Below the pieces are notes generated by a model. That model saw only the letters and a list, made by a program, of their open reading frames with translations, searched no databases and was not told the DNA's origin. From a virus (taxonomy: Duplodnaviria; Heunggongvirae; Uroviricota; Caudoviricetes): a stretch of 64,000 nt of DNA. Location: IMG/VR virus record IMGVR_UViG_3300021479_000008, positions 55,003 to 119,002 of that record. The stretch is one strand, 5' to 3'. Below are positions 1,526 to 55,400 of this stretch, piece by piece (position 1 is the first letter of the stretch; each line of letters opens with the position of its first letter). The translations under genes and the position numbers were made by a program.

Positions 1526-4468
1526 TTATTTTCTGGCGTACTGAAGCGCCATATATTCGTCGTGAGAAATCTTGTGTTTCTTGCAGTATCTGTAGGCTTT
1601 CATCAATTTCTGATTTTCTCGGCACCATGCGTTCAGGAATTCTGGAATAGTCTTGATGTCTTCGCCTATGCCTTCTATCTGTACACCATACCTGAATCCA
1701 GCTTTCGGTTTTGCTTCGAGTGGTACCTTTTTCTTCAACTTAAAATCGTGTTCGATGATCCTAACTGGTTCCTTGACCATCAACTCATATCCCAACGGAA
1801 TGGCTTTCAACAGGTACTTCAACTTGACTCTGGCATACAACGCGTCGTGGACTTCTTTGACCAGATTCTTTAACAACTTGTATTTCTCCGGTTTACGTTC
1901 TATCGTTGCAACACTCATCGTAAGTATCTGATGTGCTGCACCTTGAATTGGGCTGTTGACACTTCTGTTCCAGTAACTCTTCCCAGCTTCTTCCTGTGCC
2001 TCCGTCATCAACTGGCGTTTGAATCCAAAGATGTTCGCGATGTACTTATGCTTCTCTACAAACTTACGATACCTATCCTGTAATTTCTTCACCCCCGGAA
2101 ATTTCTTAAAGTATGCTTCCAGCTGTTTGTTGATTTCTTTCAATGTCGTCTTTACACCTTTGGCTGTGACGAAATCAAATAAACCGGGACCCATCAACCC
2201 AAACACAATACCAAAATGGATGTTCTTGATCAACTTACGAAAACGATCGTTGTGGGCAATGATCTCTTTCCTCCATCCTGTTATCGCATGACCAACATCA
2301 ACGTGCGGATCTGGTTTATGCCACTTACCACAACCATGATTCTTCGGATTACAGAACCACTTCTTCTTGGATGAAAAAATACGTATCAGTTCTTTGTCGC
2401 CAGATTCTTCAGCTAGTTCTCGTAACTCATTCTGGGAGAAATCGTATCCAAGATAAACGTCGTAATCGGCGAACTGTTTCCACGTCTTATCGGTAAAGTC
2501 TCCGTGCTCCAACCAGTATTCATACAACTTCCACCAACGTTCGTCACTTACACTGACTTGTTTTATAAAAGGGTCACCATGAATATTCTGGAAGTTAATA
2601 ACATTGTCGTCTGTCCGTTCTTTACTCTTACCAGATGACATCCTACCTGTACTCGTGCCTGTCACTTTCCAGATTGTACGTAGGCGGCGATCATTGAGAT
2701 CAGCACAGTTTTTGTAACTATCCAACATACTAAGTGCTTTGTCTACTTCACGGAACTTCTTGACTGGTTTGAGCTTTTTGTGTTTCTGTTCTAGAATCTC
2801 CATCGTACCGGCACGAGTATTGGCTCCCGACTCCAGTGGCTCGATCCCAAGTTTTTCGTAGATCAACCACCACATCTGATCTGGCGATCCCGGATTCCAT
2901 TTCTTTTCTACCCACTTACCGGTCTTACGACTTTTGTATTTGACCTTTTTCGATCCAGCCAATTCTAACAACTGTTTCGATGCACGACGTTTACGGACTT
3001 TGAATAACGGCCGTATCTTCTTGTACCAACGATAATCAAAACACGGAAAGCATTCTCGGTCATGCTGCATCCTATACAATACTACACTGGCATCAATATA
3101 AACTCCCATCAACGGAGGATTACCGGCATGACGATTACCACGTTCTACTACCTTTTCAAGATGGCAGTCTGCTCCGTTGTACAACACCATCTTCTTCCAT
3201 GGAAGTCTTGCAAGATTCACTTTACCAGTTTTTTCGGCTTGATCTACTTTAGTCCAAGCATCACTTTTCTTAGTTTTTATGAACTCACGATACTTTAACG
3301 TAAGGCCTTCCGGATACTTGATGGCTTTGTATCCCATGTAGTCTGGATACTTACGATCGGAAATAGCTTCCAGTCCATAGGCTTTAGCATTCGGATCGAG
3401 GAAATATTCTCCGAGCAACGAATCGTACTGGGCTTTTACTGGAACACCAAGAAACCTGGTAGCGGAATCTGTATCGTGTGCCGCCATATGAGCCGATTTC
3501 CGTATCTTCGGATTCGTAAGAAGTTTTCGGAGCAACTTCTTATTCAACTCCCTAGCTGCTTGACTGGATCCTGAATCTGGGTGATCGACGGCAAAAGTAT
3601 AGCTCGTATCTTTCGTTTGACAGCCTATACAAAGTAATGCCCATTTTCCGTTGTCATCTGACTTACCGTGTTTGTCAAGCTTTCCTTCTTCCGTATCAAA
3701 GACTAAAGTATGACCACTCAACGCTTCTCGTTTCAAACGTCGGTAGGCGATACGGGCTTGCTTTCTAGTCGTGACTCCTCTTGAGTCCAATGTCTTGATG
3801 AAATAGAACTGGTCTCTGACGTTGTGCTTGCGCTTGAGAATGTTTCTGGCAGCATCTAGATCTGAACGGAAGCGTTTCAACGAATCATTGGCTGGCCTTT
3901 TGTCACCTGCGGAATAACCCTGCCGGATGAAATACGCGGGGTGATCTAAATAAACAACCCACGCTTTCAATGCTTCGGAAAAGAATACCCGCTTGTTATT
4001 GTTGAACTCTTTTCCGAGTACGGCTTTACCTGCTATCTGTCCGCATACTAAATGCAACCGTGCTTTGGATTTCTGTTTCGCTTGTTCCGTGTACAATGAA
4101 CAACACTTGATTTCTTCTTTAGTGGGAGTCCGCATCTTCAACGGAGGATATACATTTTTCATTACATCAACTGGAACGCACCTTACTACGTTCTGTATAT
4201 CTACCATATCTCGCGTGATGCCTACCCGCCTTAGTTCGTACCACAAAAACTTTCCGGCTGGACCAATAGCTTCCCGTCTCTTTTTATTCTCCTTCATTCC
4301 CGGTGATTGTAACCACACAAATATCTTACGTCCACGAACTTTGCCCATTATCTTATGAACACCATGTACTTTATCTAATGGACAGAAGTCGCACCCCTTT
4401 CCACGGAGTGGCTTTCCGGGTAATACATCTTCCGAACGTTGTATCTGGATAAGTGGGGTGAACGACAC
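1526..4468 (-). CDS. family A DNA polymerase with N-terminal family-4 UDG-like domain and 3'-5' exonuclease region
   Basis: Pol A motif A (YLGYDFSQNELRELAE), motif B-like (FGIVFGL) and motif C (VHDA). The N-terminus has GKGCDFCPL ... QSPGMKENKKRREAIGPAGKFL, resembling the UDG family 4 GEAPG...G.PF.G.AG..L pattern. Confidence 0.85.
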   Translation of the reverse strand: MSFTPLIQIQRSEDVLPGKPLRGKGCDFCPLDKVHGVHKIMGKVRGRKIFVWLQSPGMKENKKRREAIGPAGKFLWYELRRVGITRDMVDIQNVVRCVPVDVMKNVYPPLKMRTPTKEEIKCCSLYTEQAKQKSKARLHLVCGQIAGKAVLGKEFNNNKRVFFSEALKAWVVYLDHPAYFIRQGYSAGDKRPANDSLKRFRSDLDAARNILKRKHNVRDQFYFIKTLDSRGVTTRKQARIAYRRLKREALSGHTLVFDTEEGKLDKHGKSDDNGKWALLCIGCQTKDTSYTFAVDHPDSGSSQAARELNKKLLRKLLTNPKIRKSAHMAAHDTDSATRFLGVPVKAQYDSLLGEYFLDPNAKAYGLEAISDRKYPDYMGYKAIKYPEGLTLKYREFIKTKKSDAWTKVDQAEKTGKVNLARLPWKKMVLYNGADCHLEKVVERGNRHAGNPPLMGVYIDASVVLYRMQHDRECFPCFDYRWYKKIRPLFKVRKRRASKQLLELAGSKKVKYKSRKTGKWVEKKWNPGSPDQMWWLIYEKLGIEPLESGANTRAGTMEILEQKHKKLKPVKKFREVDKALSMLDSYKNCADLNDRRLRTIWKVTGTSTGRMSSGKSKERTDDNVINFQNIHGDPFIKQVSVSDERWWKLYEYWLEHGDFTDKTWKQFADYDVYLGYDFSQNELRELAEESGDKELIRIFSSKKKWFCNPKNHGCGKWHKPDPHVDVGHAITGWRKEIIAHNDRFRKLIKNIHFGIVFGLMGPGLFDFVTAKGVKTTLKEINKQLEAYFKKFPGVKKLQDRYRKFVEKHKYIANIFGFKRQLMTEAQEEAGKSYWNRSVNSPIQGAAHQILTMSVATIERKPEKYKLLKNLVKEVHDALYARVKLKYLLKAIPLGYELMVKEPVRIIEHDFKLKKKVPLEAKPKAGFRYGVQIEGIGEDIKTIPEFLNAWCRENQKLMKAYRYCKKHKISHDEYMALQYARK

Positions 4469-30400: not shown

Positions 30401-32292
30401 TCTTCGATCTGCTTTAGTCTGGCAGCATGTTGCTCGGCATATAATTGCTTTTCACGGGTAACTTGCTGTTCAAGACTAATACGTCCGGCTTCGTAATCCT
30501 GTTTTGCAAGATCGATCTTACGTTTGTTGTACTCGACTTCAATATCGTACTTCAACTGGGCTGTTTCTTTAGCGATCTGCAACTCCAACTGTTGCTGTTG
30601 TTTTAACGCCGGAATGTTAAGATTCAAATCGTGTTGTGCACCTGCTGCTGGAGTTGGCTTTTGACCATACCTGAACTGGGCCGCGTCTAATACGTCTTTT
30701 CCGTACTGGATACGGGAATCATTTATCTCCTGTTCCATTGCTGTACGGATTTTCTTTACTTCATCGAACTTACCATGCATCACTGCATCGAGTATGTCTC
30801 CAGTATGACTTATCTTGATGGCAGCTTCGTTTACGTATTCTGCCATCGTAAGGAAACCAATGGACAACTGGGAAATAAAAGTACGGAATGGATCTGTTTT
30901 CTTTTGCAGCGAATCTAACGATGTTCCAACACCAAACAATGCCGATGCGAGACGGGAGTAAGCATCTATCTCTGCTCCGACTAGATGCAAAGTAGCAATA
31001 AACAACTTCAGGGCAGGAGTGACTACTTCTAACGTATCGCCGATCTTAGTTCCTATCCAAGTTACAAATGCTGACAACTTAGGTTGTATCTGAGTAATGA
31101 TTGACGATAATTCACTAACTACGTTCTTAAATCCTTCACTACGGGAAATGGAAACAGCCATATCGTCCATCAAATTCTTCTGGACGATTTGCCATTGCTT
31201 CAACAACTCTGGAAGCGTTGCGGCAGGAGTACCTATAGCTCTTTCTCTGGCTTCCAACGCAGCTAATACCTGATTGAACTGCATTGTGTTTCTAGTGTTA
31301 GCATCGGTTGCTGCACTTACTCCTTTCAGAGCGAGCTCTTGTCTAGTAAGGCCTGTGACCATTGCAAGAATCTGGGTACGGCCTGTTTTCGATGCTCGTT
31401 CCAAGGCGGTCATTGCTTGGGTAGCGTCTTTACCTTGTGCACGTGCAAGATCGACAGTTGCTTTTACCAATCTGGCTATATCGTCTGTACTAACCTTCAG
31501 ACCTTGCTGCATGTAGTTATTGGCAATACGATACAACTGAACGTCATCCGCCAATCCACGTGTTGCAGTACGTAACTTATTCAAGTACTCATCTGGAGAT
31601 ATTCCAGCCCGTGCTGTAAGTTTCTCAAACTGTTCTCGCAACTGAACTGCCGGACCAGTGGCTTCTACTAACGCTTCTCCCAAAGCGTGTATCTTCTCTC
31701 CAGCTTTACCAAGAAGCTCTATTACACCGGCACCGATTAATCCTCCGGCTAATACCCCACCTGCCACACTTCCAAGTACACCCCCTCCTGCCAGTCCACT
31801 GGCAAACCTTCCTATACCCGCCAGTAACCCGCCTTCATTTCCCGTTCTTGTTGTACCGGCTGCGCCCCGTGCTTGTATTTTTGTTTGTTGTTCTGACAAC
31901 CTGACTTGTTGCTGGAGAATGCGGAGACGTTCCTGTTCAAGACGTAAGTTACCAGTTGCTATGGTTTGCTGTTTCTTCGATTCGGCTGTTTCTAAGGCAC
32001 GTTGCTGGATGGTGGTTTTTATCGTTTCTTGATTTTTACGTTCCCACTGAGCCTTTGCGGCGTCAATGGCTTGCAACGTTCTCGCTTCTGCCGTTAACCG
32101 TTTCTGTTCTTCTATCTGCTTACGAGTGAGATCAATCTGCTCCTTTTGAATACTCTTCATCGATGTCGCATCAGCTTTGGCTTTCTGGTTTATAGCGTCA
32201 AGCTGACTACGCATCTGACGGACAGTGGCTTGCCACCCAGCGGTATCGATGACTGACTTTATCAGGAGCTTTTTGGTAATATCACTCGCCAT
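27466..32292 (-). CDS. tail tape measure protein (1608 aa)
   Basis: Long coiled-coil, Gln/Ala-rich protein with Gly-rich segments. Positioned after the chaperone pair and before the fiber. Confidence 0.75.
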   Translation of the reverse strand: MASDITKKLLIKSVIDTAGWQATVRQMRSQLDAINQKAKADATSMKSIQKEQIDLTRKQIEEQKRLTAEARTLQAIDAAKAQWERKNQETIKTTIQQRALETAESKKQQTIATGNLRLEQERLRILQQQVRLSEQQTKIQARGAAGTTRTGNEGGLLAGIGRFASGLAGGGVLGSVAGGVLAGGLIGAGVIELLGKAGEKIHALGEALVEATGPAVQLREQFEKLTARAGISPDEYLNKLRTATRGLADDVQLYRIANNYMQQGLKVSTDDIARLVKATVDLARAQGKDATQAMTALERASKTGRTQILAMVTGLTRQELALKGVSAATDANTRNTMQFNQVLAALEARERAIGTPAATLPELLKQWQIVQKNLMDDMAVSISRSEGFKNVVSELSSIITQIQPKLSAFVTWIGTKIGDTLEVVTPALKLFIATLHLVGAEIDAYSRLASALFGVGTSLDSLQKKTDPFRTFISQLSIGFLTMAEYVNEAAIKISHTGDILDAVMHGKFDEVKKIRTAMEQEINDSRIQYGKDVLDAAQFRYGQKPTPAAGAQHDLNLNIPALKQQQQLELQIAKETAQLKYDIEVEYNKRKIDLAKQDYEAGRISLEQQVTREKQLYAEQHAARLKQIEDDRKAQIGFITKTAKDTAEPHKITQEKIEKENLSAQDKREKENTAFQEKNYAADRQLEQDTETAKRSHEEHLTAIVKEGIATRQALLEKDFHEGLVSADDYLDKRRTLIIAEYLAVKNGLDNQLAVAKKNRAETQKIEDEQDKNREDRNKKLALLDQSEDEVRLRALQTQYQLQTRPLQTQAQIAAGDITGRSFGLEVSAKQQLASLAQQHLQALQAQKFAPGSDAELKRQEDIEQTMLSIQKLTQELIKLKDVSTQLSGIFGSISGLAGVFPRSKTAAGISELFGQMQQSSQNIGVFGQRQDAIKQKQQETGEGPSNIFSSLGKSFTELFNSSKSASERLKHFGDDLSGVIQGVMGLIQGLTAGKSGAGGALSGGMAGAEFGSKLGVPFGGLIGLGVGATLGGIFGSKNKELQQDIHKIQTQLQSIVSDLQAGTISLTQAIADLRAERQQAIAMLSSGGAGKKGGKGGGAKKGYTPSQAQAVIQQIDSQIQQLVNEQTVLLQNLNQSLIQLSAPIQFQEYIQSLDTIIQKYQQFASAAQGNAQEVANANQYLTASLQQYVTTLSNQLNTAQQQAIQDGLTLINLEYQRQQLINQEAQSEYDVLTQGVLTRQRTTAMTKGQEIGVLRYQRDMQLEQINEQISMEQYKVQAETQIFNLATTRIGLENQLLSAQESQINVQVAQIAALSQIVSSLGTGLSTGSIMQTLTSMEAGGALPTGTGILYALMQMLGLSQYVPPGTITGQYGATNWLSLVPATDASAAQYVASLDPNFPNMILNKQYSAAAADASQYVSQGEVEGYDMTGLVSWLQSGGTSTGGGTPPGGGTPPGGLNQYPNAPQYALGGEISRTGLIFGHKGEWVLPKPIVSMINGIHSFMMGPVATPQIKSSAIFGGATDSTSLTVHNQLFNLTNKRANIEMAVITARQSQLESEAANIKALQSLYTSMSVGSSSGTSFEAMLQKVYETRGRYGSAGFRREGV

Positions 32293-32294
32293 AG

Positions 32295-32834
32295 CTATCG
32301 CCTAAGTTTGTATGCATCACGTATCTGTTGGGTGACTGGATCGGATTCGTCAACCATCTTAATAGCTCCCATGTCGGGGAACGGAATATTCAGGCAAGCA
32401 AAATACCTCTTAGCTTCCTCGCCTGTAACCTGAGATAGAACAATTTCTCCTTTCCTCGCGACTAGTTTTCCACGTGCGTCGTAAATATCTTCCTTCGCGT
32501 AGAATTTCTCCGGCAAGTCGGCTGGAATGTGATCGTTTGGTCCGTAGATTCCATGTTTCTTTTTCTTCATTGTACCTTCTTCTTGTACTTCAGTTTCATC
32601 TTCTTCTGTCTCGTCTGTCTTGATCTTGTTCTTGAAATGGAAATGCTGTTCCTGTGATCTCCATGCCATCAATACTAATTCTGACGTTGTGAACTTTTTC
32701 CGTATCTCACGCAACGGCAACTGAAATGTCTCCACCAAGGAACAAGCTGCTGCTACACTTGGATACTTGGCCCTTCCAACATCGTCTTTGTCTTCAGGCC
32801 ACTTAGGGAGACGCGCGAGAAAAAATCCCGTATT
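32295..32834 (-). CDS. frameshift extension of the tail assembly chaperone (gpGT-like C-terminal part)
   Basis: The -1 frame opens at a TAG two codons upstream of the U_UUU_UUC slip site and runs to 32295. A fusion product of about 390 aa is predicted. Confidence 0.55.
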   Translation of the reverse strand, partial: NTGFFLARLPKWPEDKDDVGRAKYPSVAAACSLVETFQLPLREIRKKFTTSELVLMAWRSQEQHFHFKNKIKTDETEEDETEVQEEGTMKKKKHGIYGPNDHIPADLPEKFYAKEDIYDARGKLVARKGEIVLSQVTGEEAKRYFACLNIPFPDMGAIKMVDESDPVTQQIRDAYKLRR

Positions 32835-33469
32835 CTATTCACCTTCAACTGGGCTTCAACGATGTTCCATTGACGATTGGAACTGATATTGCTTTGTACC
32901 CACTTACGAGTAATTTCTGGATCATCTCCAAATGGATTCAAGACTATAACTACGGCATCGGCCAAGGCTCCCAACGATTCGTCTATCAACTCAAGAACGG
33001 CTTTGGCTTTATCCTCAAATTGCATATCCATACCCGCTTGAGTAAAAGCTTTCAACGATTGGGCTTTTTCGATCAACTTTTCCTTGAACTGGTGGTAGAA
33101 CTTCAATTCGGAATCTTGGGGAAGCTCACGAATGGTAAACGTCTTCGTTTCTTCATGTGTCTTACCGACGTTTACTGGCAACGTGAACGTATCGTATTCC
33201 TGGGATAAGAGTGCTTGGAGATCTTCGTGCGTGGGCGGTTTTTGTTCTTCTTCGATCTGAGTACGTATGCGCGTAAGCTCCGCTTGCATTACTTTCTCGT
33301 ACTCTTTTCTTACACCGTCAAGCTCTTCATCTTTCCATACCTTCAACAACATCTCACATTCTTTACGTACTTCGAGATACACCTCTCCCCGAATACGGTG
33401 CTTCTCAATCCATTCTGGTGTTTGTGTTACTGTGGCAGGTTGTACTTCGGTTTCTTTTACTTCTTCCAT
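32753..33469 (-). CDS. tail assembly chaperone (gpG-like)
   Basis: Acidic 238-aa protein between the tail tube gene and the tape measure gene. Ends 15 nt before a -1-frame ORF and has a slippery heptamer near its 3' end. Confidence 0.6.
   Translation of the reverse strand: MEEVKETEVQPATVTQTPEWIEKHRIRGEVYLEVRKECEMLLKVWKDEELDGVRKEYEKVMQAELTRIRTQIEEEQKPPTHEDLQALLSQEYDTFTLPVNVGKTHEETKTFTIRELPQDSELKFYHQFKEKLIEKAQSLKAFTQAGMDMQFEDKAKAVLELIDESLGALADAVVIVLNPFGDDPEITRKWVQSNISSNRQWNIVEAQLKVNRIRDFFSRVSLSGLKTKTMLEGPSIQV
32819..32825 (-). other. programmed -1 ribosomal frameshift slippery heptamer U_UUU_UUC
   Basis: Minus-sense GAU UUU UUC in the chaperone reading frame. Both P- and A-site codons re-pair as UUU in the -1 frame. 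Confidence 0.6.
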
Positions 33470-33506
33470 AATTGATCTCCAGTCTAAACTGCTTAATTAG
33501 GAACAA

Positions 33507-34277
33507 CTAGTTACAATGGTGATGTTTACTGCTGATTATCTCAAACACTGTACTGGAATAATGCTTCAACGCACGTTCAATTTTACGTTTGATATGTGGT
33601 AACAACCAACCTTTGACCTCTATAAACTTAAACTCATCTGGTAGATAGAAATCAGGTGTCCAAGTTTTAACAGGACGTACCCCAACATCAAAAGTGAACG
33701 CTTCGTACAACCATTTCTTTCCTTTCCTATCAAGATATTTAGCGTAGTTTACTTCGGACTTACAACGCATTGCTATACGACCGCACTTTCCATTATACCA
33801 AACCGTACGTGGGCCGCGCGGTCGTCCGACTGGGTCTTGCCCTTTCATCGTAGCTTTAAGTTTTGGAACAGTGACTTCGTGGTGGATTTTAAGACGCGCT
33901 GCACGACGTACTGGATCGGCCCAGGCTGTTTTCATTGCTGCAATACGCTTTGCACGTTTCTTTTTGTTCCTCCATGCTTTCTTTTGACCTTTGATCATTG
34001 CTTTTGTTACACGTTCTATGACGCCTGTTTCTCGACGAGTAGCTACGCGGCGTGCATAATTATCTTCCAATTCTTCCTTAGACGTGTTCTTGTAGTAATC
34101 ACTAACAGCTTTACGTCCTTTGGCAGATTTATTCCTACGTATCAACTTTCTAATAGCTTTAGCAGAAGCGTGTCGTGAAGCAGCGTGTGAGGCTGGATTA
34201 TGACCACGGGCGTAATCTTTTCCTTGGTTCACTACAGCCTCACACTCGGGTTTGCATTTACACGTTTTCATTGTCAC
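33507..34277 (-). CDS. putative homing endonuclease (PD-(D/E)XK-like) inserted in the tail module
   Basis: C-terminal TPDFYLPDEFKFIEVKGW has a D ... E.K nuclease-like motif. Basic Arg/Lys-rich N-terminus. Promoter copy 6 directly upstream. Confidence 0.4.
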   Translation of the reverse strand: MTMKTCKCKPECEAVVNQGKDYARGHNPASHAASRHASAKAIRKLIRRNKSAKGRKAVSDYYKNTSKEELEDNYARRVATRRETGVIERVTKAMIKGQKKAWRNKKKRAKRIAAMKTAWADPVRRAARLKIHHEVTVPKLKATMKGQDPVGRPRGPRTVWYNGKCGRIAMRCKSEVNYAKYLDRKGKKWLYEAFTFDVGVRPVKTWTPDFYLPDEFKFIEVKGWLLPHIKRKIERALKHYSSTVFEIISSKHHHCN

Positions 34278-34290
34278 GTATCCTCTGTAT

Positions 34291-34303
34291 TTATTATACA
34301 GAA
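34291..34303 (-). promoter_or_regulatory. extended -10 promoter copy 6
   Basis: Minus-sense TTTTCTGTATAATAAATACAGAGGAT...ATG. Confidence 0.5.
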
Positions 34304-34316
34304 AACACAGAACAAC

Positions 34317-35366
34317 TTAAATACCAACCGCCTCGTTGCTACGCATGTAATACCCCTTGTAGGCTACCACAGTTTCACCATCAAGCGGGTCGTCGAATGC
34401 TAGTGCGTTGAACTGTGCATCCAACTGACTTCCATGCTGGTCTGTAGTACCAGAGTTCTCAATCGTCCAGTCCGCAGCAATGTCTTTGTTCTGGGCAATT
34501 GACAGGTGGGGGTAATAGATCACCAACTGAGCAGTGTCAACTGTGTTCGATTGGAACAAACCTGACCACTCAGAGATAAACGTACCACCTTCTCTGGCTA
34601 GGAATCCTTTGATCGGAATAACTTTGAACTGTGCTCCAGCGGCAAAGGCTCCTGTCTGTGTGTTCAAGTTTGGACCACTTGCTGACGATGGGAACGATCC
34701 ACCACCAACGAATGGCTGGTCTAGTGTCAACGTCAACCCGTTTATACCGACTACCCTTGCGACGTAATCCGTATTCTTTCTAAAGTAGTCAATGTCCGTT
34801 ACTGCGTTCTGGTATACAGGAACACCGGCATCCGACAATGCTGATCCGAATGTTCCAACTACATAGTCGATGTCCATAGCGATGTAACTGCCTACATAGA
34901 TCTGGACTGTGGCTGGGATACGGTCTAACGTTAACGTTGGTGCTGTGTTCTGCGGTGCATTCCAGGCTACCGGGCTGCCTGGGTTGTAGACTGTGGCGAT
35001 TGCAAATGGAGAACCCGATGCTGACAACGGTCCAATGTTTCCACCGGCCAAACCAGTGGCTGCCAGAATGTTGAATACGTTGGAACCTGTTGCCAACTTC
35101 CACTGCATTCTTCCGTACTCGTTGAACTGGCACTCGAACGATTCTGCTACCTGACCGCGGTACTGTGCACGAATGGCTCCACGATAACCAGACGTTACTT
35201 GACCGATCTTCGATCCGACGGTCAGCTTAAAGTTTTTAATCCACCCAAGGTCTGCCATACCAAACGGTGGATAATACGAATCGAATGGACCCTGTGTCAT
35301 ATCAACGATGGTTGGCCCAACTAACGTACTGGCAATGGCCGATCCTTGGGCATAGTTATACGGCAT
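34317..35366 (-). CDS. major tail (tube) protein
   Basis: 349-aa Gly/Ala/Thr-rich protein upstream of the chaperone pair and preceded by a 324-nt leader. No sheath-sized gene is present. Confidence 0.45.
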   Translation of the reverse strand: MPYNYAQGSAIASTLVGPTIVDMTQGPFDSYYPPFGMADLGWIKNFKLTVGSKIGQVTSGYRGAIRAQYRGQVAESFECQFNEYGRMQWKLATGSNVFNILAATGLAGGNIGPLSASGSPFAIATVYNPGSPVAWNAPQNTAPTLTLDRIPATVQIYVGSYIAMDIDYVVGTFGSALSDAGVPVYQNAVTDIDYFRKNTDYVARVVGINGLTLTLDQPFVGGGSFPSSASGPNLNTQTGAFAAGAQFKVIPIKGFLAREGGTFISEWSGLFQSNTVDTAQLVIYYPHLSIAQNKDIAADWTIENSGTTDQHGSQLDAQFNALAFDDPLDGETVVAYKGYYMRSNEAVGI

Positions 35367-35690
35367 GAAGTAAGCGCGCCATCCAGCACCTACAACTAAT
35401 TTATTTTTTCTGAACCATTTGTTACTCTTCCATACTGGAAGGAGCTAGTCATTTCTGCTAGCTTCTTACGGTTGTCATTCCCGTAATGAGCGGACTATTG
35501 CATCACCCGTAGGTGTCTTCTCGCTTAGTCTCTCAGCCTGCTTTCGCTTGGCCCTCGTTGGCATCTCAGCGTCCGAGTCAATCAGAGAAGATTTAACCAG
35601 CCCCGCAGTTAAGGCTGTTGTAAACTTTTTGGAAAACTCATTTCTTTCTCCTTTTTACCGCCTTAGGCGGCTGGGATTAGCGTTGCATCC

Positions 35691-39796: not shown

Positions 39797-40828
39797 TTAC
39801 CGGACCGTGAAGCAGTGCGAATGTGCATAGCTCGCGCCTTTTACCACAACAGCACTGAATTTCAGGATCACGTACTGTGCGGCAAGGTTTCCCACCAATC
39901 CCAACTGCCAAATTCTAGGTACTGGTGAAGTCAACCAATGCACCTCAACGAACTCCTCCGACATGATGAAACCTTCATATTGCAGATACTGTGAATTGGT
40001 TACTGGGTTAATACCCACTGACTTGAGTGTAGGTAGAAATGGTTCTGGAACGAGTGGTAATAGTCCCGCCTGAGTAGGTATTGCCTTCACGATAACTCCG
40101 GGGGATATCTCCGTTTCGTTATAATAAAGTTGGAAGGCTTTCGCTTCCTTGTCGATTAGATCACAGAACATCGGAGACGAATACCACGCACTCGGCTTCA
40201 CTTCGAAGTCTGTACGGGATACCATCTGGGCGACCTGCGTCTTGATGTTGTCGATAATCGAACCGCTTGCAGGAATATTCAGGTTCTGGGAATATCCCGG
40301 AGGCGCTCCACCACCGACAATCAACGTTGGGGCACTCACGATCTGACCGCTTACTCCGAAGTACTGGAGTGATGTTGGGACTATCAGGTTCGTATCCGTT
40401 CCAGTCCACAACATCTGGTCGTGCAGCTTCAGGACTGAATCGACAGCATCGGTTAGATCCTTGGCTTCCAGATATGCAAACTGTCCTTGTTGCTGGTTGA
40501 CTTCAACATCGAATACTGAAAAGTTCAACTGGGCAACGAGTGCTTTCAACGTGACTACGTTTTCTTGACGGGTTGGTTGTCCGGCTACAGGTACGATCAC
40601 CCGTGGATCCGTTACCGTAGCGGTTTCAATGGCAGTCTGCTCGAAGTAACGAGAAGGCTGTCCTGTTGCTGGAGTTTGACTCACACGCTGTCCGAAAACA
40701 CCGCGCCGTTTTACCAGATCAAAGATTTCGGCTTGGTATTTATTCGTTTCAATCGCGCCTGGAGCCATGAAATCAGCAGCAGCTTGCAAACTTCCGATTG
40801 CCCTTGCTCTACCATGTCCGAGAAACAT
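39797..40828 (-). CDS. major capsid protein (HK97-fold candidate)
   Basis: 343 aa, follows the protease/scaffold gene, and followed by a strong hairpin. Typical size and position. Confidence 0.5.
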   Translation of the reverse strand: MFLGHGRARAIGSLQAAADFMAPGAIETNKYQAEIFDLVKRRGVFGQRVSQTPATGQPSRYFEQTAIETATVTDPRVIVPVAGQPTRQENVVTLKALVAQLNFSVFDVEVNQQQGQFAYLEAKDLTDAVDSVLKLHDQMLWTGTDTNLIVPTSLQYFGVSGQIVSAPTLIVGGGAPPGYSQNLNIPASGSIIDNIKTQVAQMVSRTDFEVKPSAWYSSPMFCDLIDKEAKAFQLYYNETEISPGVIVKAIPTQAGLLPLVPEPFLPTLKSVGINPVTNSQYLQYEGFIMSEEFVEVHWLTSPVPRIWQLGLVGNLAAQYVILKFSAVVVKGASYAHSHCFTVR

Positions 40829-42839: not shown

Positions 42840-44897
42840 TTAAATCCTCTTGTTCCCTGGGCCGGGCCGGAAGCGTCTCAACGGCTGCCCTGTTTGCAAT
42901 ACCCGATCTTTACCGGCTTTGTCATCTAGTGTTCCATCTGGTTTACGCTTGTAAATGCCACGTACTGCATTCTTCCTGTTTCGCTGATCGGCATTCGGTC
43001 CCAACGTACCACGCTTATTTATTGTTTTTTCCAGAAGACTGTCACCCGCGTCATCGTTGTAAAACTTCCGTAACTGCATTTTCTCGTCTAACGCAGTGAC
43101 TGGATCGGGAAGTACCTCGTCGGCTAGTTTATCTTCCTTTAACTTTTCAAAATATTCCTGTAATTCTGTTGATATGGTATCGAGAATTCCAGGCTGTTGG
43201 GCTTCCATTTGATCGGGAAGCGTATCTGGTGAAGGCAACAAACCTAGCTGGTAATACATTTCGATCATCTCAGGGGAAAGGTTGGCAACATCTTGGGCAC
43301 TGAACTTCATACTTCCCGTACCCAACGATCCCGGTGAAGATGCTCCACCTCCCGTTCTCATACCTCCACTTGGTGCTCCCATTCCCATGCCACCGCCTGA
43401 GCTACTGGCACTTCCTGTCATCTTGGCTTGAGCTTCTACCAACAGTAACTGCTTCTGCATCATGGTCAAACGTCCCCAAGGACCTGGCAACGGTGGTAGG
43501 TTATTCTTCTTTCTTACTTCATCACTCGTGATGGCGTCCATCGTATACAGACGCTGGTCGATAACCGTTCTGGTAATAGGATCAGGATCATCAAGGTTTT
43601 GGAACTCAAATTCCAGGTCTTTCCAGTTTAAGTCGTCATGCAACCACTGCCGGGTAAATGCTGCTTGAAACCTCGTCGCGACTGGGACTACTGCGTTCTT
43701 CCAGTCAGAGTCCGCCATGACTTGCGCTGTCGCTTTGTTTTGATGGTCGTCCAGATTTAATGCTTGTGGGGAAAGGTCGAAGGCGGCGGCTATGATGACG
43801 ATTAGGAATTTCTGCCAGTCAAGCATGAAGTCTTCTATCGTGACTGGCTTGATATCGATTGTCTTTGGTGCTTTGACTCCGGCTACCATTGCCAGCTTCG
43901 ACTGGCCTTCCAATTCGTTCATTACTTGTCTACGCAATTGCTGGATATGGGCAGTATTGATTGTCTGTTCCCACCAGAGCCATGTCTTATGTATCTGATC
44001 GGCTCCGGCTTTCGCGGACATATCTTGCACACCAAGAAACGCGTTAACGCTGTTGAATCCAACTTCCATCCTTCCCAGACCGAAAGGAGTGGCGGTACGG
44101 ATGTTGTCACGAATGACTAATAGCTCATCAGAAAGGAATGTAACTATACCACGCTCGCCTTTCAGTCCCGTCATCTGGGCATAACGTGGTCTGTCGGGAG
44201 CTGACTCGGTCCAATCCAAAAACATACGAATCGTACTTCCGTCGACTGCCCACATCTTGGTTGGACGTTTGAAATACGGAGTCGTTCTATGCTCGATGAC
44301 TCCCATCCCGACTAACAGGAAATCTTCCAGTGCCATCTCCAACAGATCACGGAAACTTTCTCCGGTATTATTCGGACGCTTCAACGTTTCTGTGGCGATA
44401 CGTATACGCTTCTCACGGTCGGGATCTTTATCGTCGACGAATTCTTTGGTGGGTTTGATCTGCCACTTAAACTGCAGTACGGAATTCTTTACCAGATTCA
44501 TCGCCCGACGAGGAATCGGTGTTTCGGAGAATCGACGAATGCTATAGGGAGTATTTTTGAGTACAGGGACGTTCAACCGATGTAAACTTTCGGGCATGTA
44601 CGGGTATGCCCACGACTGCCTATCGACGATATCGAATTGCTTGGCGTCTCGCGCGGCTTCGATTTCCGCGACTTGGCGGGATTTTACCATTGCCCATTCG
44701 TTACGGGGAGTGCTGAGTAATTCCTGGGCGTGGGTGACTTGCAGAAGCTTTATGACTTCTCTGGTGACGAGATACTTTGCCGTCTTGGCTTTGAGGTCTG
44801 CCCTCCAAGACGTGAGGAACTTCCAAAGCATCTTCAAAAGGTTCATGACAGTATTCCGACGATGCCTCATACTAGCAAACTGCAACGTCACTGTCAA
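42840..44897 (-). CDS. portal protein
   Basis: 685-aa protein at the head of the virion module, preceded by a terminator and a sigma70 promoter. A likely alternative start is the ATG near 44846. Confidence 0.55.
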   Translation of the reverse strand: MTVTLQFASMRHRRNTVMNLLKMLWKFLTSWRADLKAKTAKYLVTREVIKLLQVTHAQELLSTPRNEWAMVKSRQVAEIEAARDAKQFDIVDRQSWAYPYMPESLHRLNVPVLKNTPYSIRRFSETPIPRRAMNLVKNSVLQFKWQIKPTKEFVDDKDPDREKRIRIATETLKRPNNTGESFRDLLEMALEDFLLVGMGVIEHRTTPYFKRPTKMWAVDGSTIRMFLDWTESAPDRPRYAQMTGLKGERGIVTFLSDELLVIRDNIRTATPFGLGRMEVGFNSVNAFLGVQDMSAKAGADQIHKTWLWWEQTINTAHIQQLRRQVMNELEGQSKLAMVAGVKAPKTIDIKPVTIEDFMLDWQKFLIVIIAAAFDLSPQALNLDDHQNKATAQVMADSDWKNAVVPVATRFQAAFTRQWLHDDLNWKDLEFEFQNLDDPDPITRTVIDQRLYTMDAITSDEVRKKNNLPPLPGPWGRLTMMQKQLLLVEAQAKMTGSASSSGGGMGMGAPSGGMRTGGGASSPGSLGTGSMKFSAQDVANLSPEMIEMYYQLGLLPSPDTLPDQMEAQQPGILDTISTELQEYFEKLKEDKLADEVLPDPVTALDEKMQLRKFYNDDAGDSLLEKTINKRGTLGPNADQRNRKNAVRGIYKRKPDGTLDDKAGKDRVLQTGQPLRRFRPGPGNKRI
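44868..44896 (-). promoter_or_regulatory. sigma70-type promoter TTGACA-17-TAGTAT (minus strand)
   Basis: Perfect -35 element, 17-nt spacer and a near-consensus -10, just upstream of the ATG near 44846. Two CCGACTTACCTA direct repeats lie upstream, at about 44917..44928 and 44949..44960. Confidence 0.55.
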
Positions 44898-45077: not shown

Positions 45078-46064
45078 TTACTTATTTTCAGCTGGCAATT
45101 GCAACAACAATCCAGACCCGCCTGCCTGTACACTTGGTACTTGTCCGTTCCACTTCCAAATCATATCGTGTTGATTGTTCAATCTGTACCACGAAATCAA
45201 CCTGTCATCGATAGAAGATGACTTGATACGATTGGCTTCGGCTTCTCCTTTCGCACGAGCAACCATGGAATTACCTTGTCCTTCAGCTTCGGCTACAGCC
45301 TTCTTAGCGTCGGCTTCGGCTTGGGCGACTTCATTCTGTTTCTGTAACGCCAGCTGTGTGGCTTGTACCTTCATGTTGATTGACTGGATCACTGCTTCGG
45401 GCGGTCTTGGTGATCCGATGATTCCGAACTGCTCGATTTTTACTCCGTACTGGTCTAGCTTTTCATCTAAACATTTCTCACTGTCTTTCAACCACGGTCC
45501 ATTATCTCCCATGATCTGTTCGATGTTGTACGAACCGGCTGTATCGTTAATACACGTCCTGGCAACGGAGTGAAGAAATCCATTGTTGAATGCCGACAGA
45601 TCGTCGCTGCGGAACTTGATGTAGAAGGCAGGGACCTTATCCGCCGTTAGCGTGTACGAAAGATTAAAGTCTCCACGTACTGTCATGGAATCTTTCGTAT
45701 TGAAAGTAATCTCTTCGTTCACTGGATTACCTTCCTTCGTATCCGCTGTCCACGTTACCGATTGCATGTACGTAGGATATTCGATAATCGACGTGGAATA
45801 AGGATTATACCAAACACGTCCCGTCTTCAACGTTACATCCTGTACTCCACGTTGTGTTCCACTTTGATCTACTTCTATCCCAACCATTCCCGGACCAATT
45901 CTGGTGGTACATACTATAAACAGAATCAATACCACAACAGCACATATCCCAAGCCCAATGATCTGCAAAGTCCTACTCATGTTTATCTCCTTTTTCGGTT
46001 GACTCATTTGATTCGGATAAGTCGATTGTCTCGGTACCTTCACTTTTAACCCTCCTTTGTACAA
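45078..46064 (-). CDS. SPFH/band-7 (stomatin/prohibitin/HflK-like) domain protein with N-terminal transmembrane segment
   Basis: TM helix (LQIIGLGICAVVVLILFIV), then IGPGMVGIEV...TKDSMTVRGDFNLSYTL and an Ala/Glu-rich coiled-coil tail. Confidence 0.65.
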   Translation of the reverse strand: MYKGGLKVKVPRQSTYPNQMSQPKKEINMSRTLQIIGLGICAVVVLILFIVCTTRIGPGMVGIEVDQSGTQRGVQDVTLKTGRVWYNPYSTSIIEYPTYMQSVTWTADTKEGNPVNEEITFNTKDSMTVRGDFNLSYTLTADKVPAFYIKFRSDDLSAFNNGFLHSVARTCINDTAGSYNIEQIMGDNGPWLKDSEKCLDEKLDQYGVKIEQFGIIGSPRPPEAVIQSINMKVQATQLALQKQNEVAQAEADAKKAVAEAEGQGNSMVARAKGEAEANRIKSSSIDDRLISWYRLNNQHDMIWKWNGQVPSVQAGGSGLLLQLPAENK

Positions 46065-55001: not shown

Positions 55002-55400
55002 CTAACGTTTAGGCCAAATATATGGAAGATTATCTGGAACCTTCCACTTGAATTGGCTGTAGTACAGCTTATCTTTTCTCAACAGGTTACTTCTATGCGA
55101 ACGATGAAACTTCTTGTTTCCAACAAAAGGCGGAAAACGTACCTGGGTATTGCGTGGAATAGGTATCGTATTTTTATACCCACGGTGTTTCCACTCTTGA
55201 ATCATACAACGCAGGTAGTAACGAAGAGCTGGCTGATATCCTTTCCACATTTTCACAGCTGGATGATACTGCCAGCCTTTCGATTTACCTTGCAGCACGT
55301 TAAGTATCTGCATGGCTTCGACTCGTTGTTTTCCAAGTCTTTTGTTGTCTAGACACGCGGCTGACTTTTGAAAGCTAGCATACGGAAGAAATGTCTGCAC
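55002..55400 (-). CDS. possible pyrimidine-dimer DNA glycosylase (DenV-like); weak
   Basis: The N-terminal pattern LDNKRLGKQRVEAMQIL loosely resembles Pyr_excise LADQHLMAEYREL. Remote similarity only. Confidence 0.25.
   Translation of the reverse strand: MQTFLPYASFQKSAACLDNKRLGKQRVEAMQILNVLQGKSKGWQYHPAVKMWKGYQPALRYYLRCMIQEWKHRGYKNTIPIPRNTQVRFPPFVGNKKFHRSHRSNLLRKDKLYYSQFKWKVPDNLPYIWPKR

Follow-up and report, generated by a model that had tools for sequence, protein, structure and literature searches.

In the 64,000-nucleotide (nt) stretch of DNA analyzed here, which is called the window in its full length (positions 55,003 to 119,002 of record IMGVR_UViG_3300021479_000008, Caudoviricetes), two overlapping open reading frames (ORFs), termed G and T, are located on the minus strand, the strand that carries all long ORFs of the window. 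The G/T pair is encoded by an uncultured siphovirus-like soil phage and a -1 ribosomal frameshift very probably produces from it the GT fusion of a tail-assembly-chaperone pair. A sequence-only reading of the same DNA had proposed a programmed -1 frameshift of the lambda G/GT type, and this proposal is now supported by the architecture of the locus, by a slip site that is conserved among relatives, by a switch of protein coding to the -1 frame past the slippery heptamer, and by the lack of an independent, conserved start for T.

The acidic G ORF of 238 amino acids (aa) lies where the sequence-only reading had placed it and is preceded by a GGAG 7 nt upstream of its ATG (Table 1). Around the slip site its zero frame reads CGG GAT TTT TTC TCG, and therefore the heptamer U_UUU_UUC, which is present at the predicted place, has the X_XXY_YYZ register. 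A TAG that opens the -1 frame is indeed found upstream of the heptamer, at a distance of three sense codons and not of two as had been claimed. After a slip, the -1 frame continues with CTC GCG CGT (LARLPKW...) and is open up to a TAG at 32297..32295. The 147-aa ORF noted earlier in this frame turned out to be a mechanical ORF inside the longer -1 stretch of T, which counts 174 codons. Both the junction that had been anticipated (...RIRDFF/LARLPKW...) and the size of about 390 aa agree with the fusion of 391 aa predicted here. The ATG of the tape-measure gene (32292) begins 2 nt past the T stop. XXXYYYZ heptamers occur often, the gene strand of the window having 169 of them, and the chance expectation is about 0.07 in-frame heptamers in an 84-nt overlap; the heptamer taken alone is weak evidence. 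Together, the stop-free -1 frame of 174 codons and the conservation in relatives put the site far beyond chance. With respect to the codons of the site, a change of GAT TTT TTC to GAC TTC TTC preserves Asp-Phe-Phe, and a change of UUUUUUC to UUCUUCC alters the protein.

Homologues of G were found in 35 cases, with identities of 38-100%, and 44 related loci plus three more were compared. The main clade among them comprises 40 distinct sequences with 31-72% protein identity, and T_TTT_TTN is present in the identical register in all 40 (TTTTTTC in 36, TTTTTTA in three, and TTTTTTT in one). Wherever a main-clade contig reaches the stop, the heptamer is followed by a -1 extension of 100-174 codons. 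With the sequences aligned on the heptamer, the zero-frame wobbles that precede it are nearly saturated, at entropies of 1.8-1.9 bits, and within it the first two wobble positions (GAT and the first TTT) have an entropy of 0 bits and the third one of 0.41 bits. Elsewhere in these G genes, TTT accounts for a fraction of 0.515 of the Phe codons and GAT for 0.65 of the Asp codons. At one locus (L038) Asp (GAT) is replaced by Ser (AGT) and the T is retained. The frozen wobbles, the codon usage, and this replacement indicate that the nucleotides themselves are conserved, beyond what the Asp-Phe-Phe peptide alone would call for.

Mean pairwise amino-acid identity was determined in all three frames on both sides of the site, using for the overlap 15 loci that share an 88-nt overlap. 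For the 24 codons upstream of the site, the identity was 0.63 in frame 0, 0.29 in frame -1, and 0.35 in frame +1. Across the 25-codon overlap, the respective values were 0.52, 0.58, and 0.40, and for the 24 codons past the G stop they were 0.33, 0.62, and 0.30. Judged from these identities, protein-level conservation changes from frame 0 to frame -1 exactly at the heptamer, and the G and T parts are each under purifying selection in their own frame. T aligns from the first residue past the heptamer, with the consensus L..LPKWP.D.DD...S..P.VAAA.S.IETF.MPLREI..RFT.SE....AWRSQE, and downstream of this conserved start a variable charged linker is followed by a C-terminal motif, P.GLP..F...GE.DL..VTG..A..Y...G. 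The overlap between G and T, which spans 21-30 codons in the family, shows protein-level conservation in either frame, with S..SQSGQ.TQTMM.G.NFQQLQQL.R as the zero-frame tail of G and L..LPKWP.D.DD...S..P.VAAA in the -1 frame, and the overlap of the window might encode two functional peptides.

The same comparison bears on a trivial explanation, namely that a homopolymer sequencing error has split one continuous G-T gene or that T is a non-functional remnant. Assemblies are prone to indel errors at homopolymers; however, 40 contigs that come from different samples and sequencing projects and were assembled independently share the identical T6 run and frame layout, the zero-frame tail of G past the site is conserved and its stop codon falls at a comparable position, and the T region is under clear purifying selection, which speaks against decay. 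Such an artefact or decayed gene has practically no probability left and is effectively refuted by the comparative data.

A second explanation is that T is made alone, without any fusion, either by re-initiation after the G stop or by de novo initiation at a TTG, GTG, or ATG at codons 28-34 of the -1 stretch. In many relatives an ATG overlaps or adjoins the G stop, and gene callers annotate an ORF of 82-136 aa there; in the window, the -1 stretch has TTG or GTG as its codons 28, 29, and 34, the last of which is a TTG with a GGAG 9 nt upstream. Throughout the loci, the first ATG, GTG, or TTG of the -1 stretch is usually found at codon 25-34, yet these candidate starts are mostly not accompanied by a Shine-Dalgarno sequence, and their positions correspond to conserved hydrophobic residues (Met, Val, Ile, Leu) which many loci encode with the non-start codons ATA, ATT, ATC, or CTN. 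In three loci (L005, L032, and L038) the first start codon appears only at codon 49-61, that is, beyond the conserved P.VAAA.S.IETF.MPLREI..RFT.SE motif. In addition, the -1 translation of the preceding 25-33 codons is conserved, even beyond the G stop where there is no upstream start, and an independently made T would leave the frozen wobbles of the heptamer unexplained. As the conserved beginning of T precedes any start codon, ribosomes can enter the conserved N-terminus of T only from G, through a -1 shift, and we consider the separate synthesis of T to be very improbable.

A fusion protein could also arise by transcriptional slippage, if RNA polymerase inserted an extra U while copying the T6 run and the minor mRNA so formed were translated into GT in the standard way. 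The site is a homopolymer, one locus (L047) has a T7 run, and an inserted base would lead to a protein identical to that of a -1 ribosomal shift. Slipping of bacterial RNA polymerase on long runs of A or T is known, but efficient slippage has been reported on runs of about 9 A or T (PMC5009743). The run is exactly six in 39 of the 40 main-clade loci and is not lengthened; it always lies in the X_XXY_YYZ register, which is relevant to tRNAs and not to the polymerase; and a sister clade keeps the -1 arrangement with T3-T4 only. Slippage of the polymerase is thus given little credence here, and -1 slippage of the ribosome is the preferred explanation.

Some results weigh against a ribosomal frameshift in the window. 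Asp-Phe-Phe is conserved as protein too, which explains part of the nucleotide conservation, though not the wobbles, and some internal initiation that gives a shorter T may occur in the window. The 126 nt from the heptamer onwards did not fold significantly better than shuffled sequence (z = -1.6, for the window sequence alone), RNAalifold predicted 0 pairs for 36 sequences downstream of the heptamer, and the folding z-scores calculated for each of 37 loci had a mean of +0.3. Neither G nor T of the window has a match in Pfam or PHROG, and profile searches of the PDB with G and T gave no related structure, the sole match of the T profile below E 0.01 being an unrelated protein. Finally, the phage is known from metagenomes alone and the fusion is predicted from its DNA.

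With regard to RNA stimulators, Rfam also gave nothing at the shift region, and a conserved downstream hairpin or pseudoknot was rejected as a candidate on the grounds that z-scores, RNAalifold, and Rfam were all null. Stimulators of the dnaX type are Shine-Dalgarno-like and located about 10 nt upstream of the slip site. Upstream of the heptamer studied here, the only G-rich element is a GGGA or AGGA formed by the Arg/Lys-Asp codons, and this element directly abuts the heptamer. With no apparent RNA stimulator, a low efficiency of a few per cent, provided by the heptamer only, would be expected.

Searches for the family and the fold of the two proteins were extended to relatives. One of the 35 G homologues matches phrog_25000, annotated as 'tail assembly chaperone', with a weak score (E 0.0078), and none of 31 T sequences scanned matches a chaperone-annotated family, one single match to an unannotated PHROG being obtained. 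A profile search with G among 1.84 billion representatives retrieved 153 clusters at 50% identity, nearly all of about 210-260 aa, and reached no other family. By sequence, G and T do not belong to any named chaperone family. The AlphaFold model of G (predicted local distance difference test, pLDDT, 78) consists of an N-terminal helix of 57 residues, a beta-hairpin, and a helical C-terminal half. When compared with BFVD by Foldseek, its best match is an unnamed protein (E 1.4e-5, template modelling score 0.69 on the target), and among the named matches are 'Pre-tape measure frameshift protein G' from Xylella phage Sano as well as several proteins named as tail assembly chaperones, with probabilities of 0.96-0.99 and modest E-values. 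The predicted fold of G is weakly supportive of a chaperone.

A sister clade, of which eight loci were examined (L006/L041 on one contig, L007, and L049-L054; proteins P0156-P0178), lacks the heptamer. Its zero frame reads (C/A)GG GAT TTY followed by GGN or ATC, the motifs at the site being GAT TTY GGN and GAT TTT ATC, with no X_XXY_YYZ heptamer and with T3-T4 only. T is nevertheless present in the -1 frame as an ORF of 149-189 codons which has no start codon before its conserved N-terminus. G stops early in this clade and 12 codons separate its stop from the first start codon; these 12 codons show the coding signature of the T frame, with an identity of 0.75 versus 0.36 and a third-position entropy of 1.25 versus 0.33 and 0.38. 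This arrangement implies that the sister clade would still need a -1 shift, for which a single P-site slip on U_UUY seems to be the simplest reading. T6N-compatible motifs (DFF, SFF, DFL, SFL, NFL) occur in about 110 of 123 full-length representatives, and about 10 have DF[I/G/T/M] or similar; among the representatives at 50% identity, motifs like those of the sister clade make up about 10%. We tentatively suggest that the recoding signal has turned over, in that a heptamer operates in the window phage and in about 90% of its relatives and may have been replaced in the sister clade by a stimulator-free U_UUY slip; this possibility, for which we claim rather less than even confidence, would make the family a natural series on the minimal sequence for a low and fixed frameshift ratio. 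Of all leads of this analysis, only the sister clade without a heptamer is unusual, and it is of possible interest to recoding researchers.

For the phage of the window, the following course of events is proposed. Most ribosomes would read G through to its TAG. A minority would pause at U_UUU_UUC while peptidyl-tRNA-Phe is paired with UUU and aminoacyl-tRNA-Phe with UUC, and the two tRNAs would then re-pair one base back onto UUU UUU. From there a further 174 codons would be read in the -1 frame, beginning with CTC GCG, and the resulting GT of 391 aa would stop 2 nt short of the tape-measure ATG. If the pair acts like lambda gpG/gpGT, the 1608-aa tape measure would be coated by the G part, which both products share, the tube protein would be brought in by the T part, and the finished virion would contain neither G nor GT.

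The position of the pair between tube and tape-measure genes, which the sequence-only reading had assumed, is borne out by gene order and by structure comparison. In every long locus the order is capsid-like, p294, p181, p114, p137, p165, p160, p182, tube, G, T, tape measure, and a protein of 1605 aa, with the tube gene directly upstream of G in relatives. The top Foldseek matches of the tube model in the PDB are tail tube proteins of siphophages, namely 9n71_A (E 3.6e-6), 8rk3_f, 6xgr, and phage Chi, 8rk3_f being a JBD30 baseplate entry whose chain role is unchecked. At the level of the predicted model, a siphophage tail-tube fold of the 349-aa protein is confirmed; at the sequence level, no match to it was found in Pfam, PHROG, or GenBank phages. 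The 1608-aa protein, which is conserved and syntenic, has a high content of Ala, Gln, and Leu along with two hydrophobic segments rich in Gly, and gave no family match in Pfam, PHROG, GenBank phages, or a PDB sequence search. From its position, size, and composition we infer that it is the tape measure.

In the window the gap between tube and G amounts to 847 nt, versus 77-127 nt in ten relatives measured, and is occupied by an endonuclease-like gene. The encoded 256-aa protein is probably of the PD-(D/E)XK type, as suggested by a C-terminal PDF...EVKG motif. A homing-endonuclease-like insertion had been postulated at this place, and the gene is missing between tube and G in 14 of 14 long relatives; homologues of it are located at other intergenic sites of the same module in three loci (L003, L031, and L043). 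As judged by this distribution, the ORF is confirmed as a mobile insertion that sits between tube and G in this phage only, and its behavior resembles that of a free-standing homing endonuclease. In a relative (L047, 3091-3471), an HNH_3/NUMOD4 homing-endonuclease gene is found right after the T ORF and before the tape-measure gene; it is a second, different mobile endonuclease beside the chaperone pair in the family.

Two further genes of this region are conserved in the related loci. A 160-aa pentapeptide-repeat protein, encoded between the HK97-gp10-like protein and the 182-aa pre-tube protein and conserved in every related locus, is an unusual component of a head-tail or tail module. Directly downstream of the tape-measure-like gene lies a second giant ORF of 1605 aa, also conserved in relatives, with no match in Pfam or PHROG; its product is presumably a distal tail or hub protein.

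Table 1. Features of the G/T locus and of the surrounding structural module; coordinates are window positions unless a locus is named.
Feature	Position	Strand	Remarks
G ORF, acidic, 238 aa	ATG 33469 to TAG 32755..32753	-	pI (isoelectric point) 5.06, 27.7 kDa
Slippery heptamer T_TTT_TTC	32825..32819	-	zero frame GAT TTT TTC, Asp215-Phe216-Phe217
TAG opening the -1 frame	32837..32835	-	three sense codons (AAT ACG GGA) before heptamer
T segment, -1 frame	32295..32819	-	174 codons + TAG stop
Mechanical ORF in T, 147 aa	32295..32738	-	TTG start
Predicted GT fusion	32295..33469	-	inferred; 217 + 174 = 391 aa, 45.6 kDa
Two-frame overlap	32753..32818	-	21-codon zero-frame tail of G + stop; first 22 codons of T
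Tape-measure-like protein, 1608 aa	27466..32292	-	conserved, syntenic
Second giant ORF, 1605 aa	22546..27363	-	
Endonuclease-like gene, 256 aa	33507..34277	-	PHROG endonuclease and resolvase matches, residues 167-245
Major tail (tube) protein, 349 aa	34317..35366	-	473 homologues; model pLDDT 66
Pentapeptide-repeat protein, 160 aa	36248..36730	-	PF00805, E 2e-15
HK97-gp10-like neck protein			borderline; Pfam score 21.3 vs cut-off 21.4 bits
Capsid-like protein gene	39797..40828	-	
Portal protein gene	42840..44897	-	PF04860, E 1e-26
SPFH/Band 7 protein	45078..46064	-	PF01145, E 1e-23
Sister-clade sites	L006 6440-6560; L007 6515-6640; L049-L054 around 2150-2300		

Portal, neck-like, tube, and tape-measure-like proteins mark the region as a tailed-phage structural module, and an SPFH/Band 7 protein is encoded directly upstream of the portal gene. 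The matches of the window in Pfam and PHROGs are confined to the borderline HK97-gp10-like protein and to the pentapeptide-repeat, SPFH/Band 7, portal, and endonuclease proteins, these two collections giving nothing for G, T, tube, tape measure, and capsid; for the capsid-like protein GenBank phages gave no match either. The region, G, and the capsid gave no match by blastn and tblastn to 50,697 GenBank phage records, and a prophage and host search of 185,579 species genomes revealed no relative. A scan of 32000..35600 for promoters and terminators found such sites to be no more numerous than in shuffled sequence. The relatives are all metagenomic, on contigs of up to about 120 kb, and many of them are of soil origin according to our reading of sample names. 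The lineage is sizeable, the tube family alone counting 473 metagenomic homologues, and is known from metagenomes only, without a cultured representative.

There is nothing out of the ordinary in the frameshift proposed here: the mechanism has long been known, its description dates from 1993-2004, and thousands of phage genomes carry annotations of it. The main use of the present finding is that it corrects the annotation for a whole lineage of uncultured soil phages, in which G is labelled 'hypothetical' and T is missed or called as a separate small gene, and that it fixes tube, chaperone, and tape-measure identities in a structural module which matches no reference phage. The conceptual gain is small and consists of one more independent lineage for the near-universal G/GT frameshift of long-tailed phages, which would be able to run on a bare heptamer.

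Among known systems, the tail assembly chaperones of the SEA-PHAGES actinobacteriophages, for which 2397 joined genes are annotated in 3679 genomes (PRFect paper, PMC10885494), belong to the same class of -1 programmed frameshift as the window pair. Those phages are cultured and curated, whereas the window family is metagenomic and its public gene calls are 'hypothetical protein' and never joined.

A close parallel regarding the signal is offered by E/E+E' of phage P2, work on which is said to go back to Christie et al. in 2002. The P2 genes shift at TTTTTTG without downstream structure (PMC3091744). The window pair resembles them in its T6N heptamer, in having no downstream RNA structure, and in the location of the site between tube and tape-measure genes. 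However, P2 is a myovirus with an E of 91 aa and an E+E' of 142 aa, whereas the window phage has a siphovirus-type tube protein and its G and GT are 2.6 to 2.8 times as long, with no sequence homology.

The lambda gpG/gpGT pair was reportedly characterized by Levin, Hendrix and Casjens in 1993 and by Xu, Hendrix and Duda in 2004, 2013 and 2014. In the criteria that Xu et al. are said to have set out in 2004, G and GT occur at a fixed ratio of roughly 30:1, tail assembly depends on both, and the virion contains neither of them; the G part reportedly binds the tape measure and the T part the major tail protein. The slippery heptamer of lambda is G_GGA_AAG, unlike the U_UUU_UUC of the window. As read from its sequence, the window pair displays every architectural feature named in that 2004 work. 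Like lambda G/GT, it consists of overlapping ORFs between the major tail protein and tape-measure genes, its second ORF lies in the -1 frame without a start of its own, the fusion would contain the entire N-terminal G part, and the T stop abuts the tape-measure start. It differs from lambda in that no sequence similarity of G or T is detectable, in its two-frame overlap of 21-30 codons, and in the size of G, which has 238 aa with a predicted 57-residue N-terminal helix versus roughly 140 aa for lambda gpG. The mechanism of the lambda G/GT frameshift has been reviewed (PMC5009743), and in the window phage the long G (238 aa) and GT (391 aa) accompany a very long tape measure.

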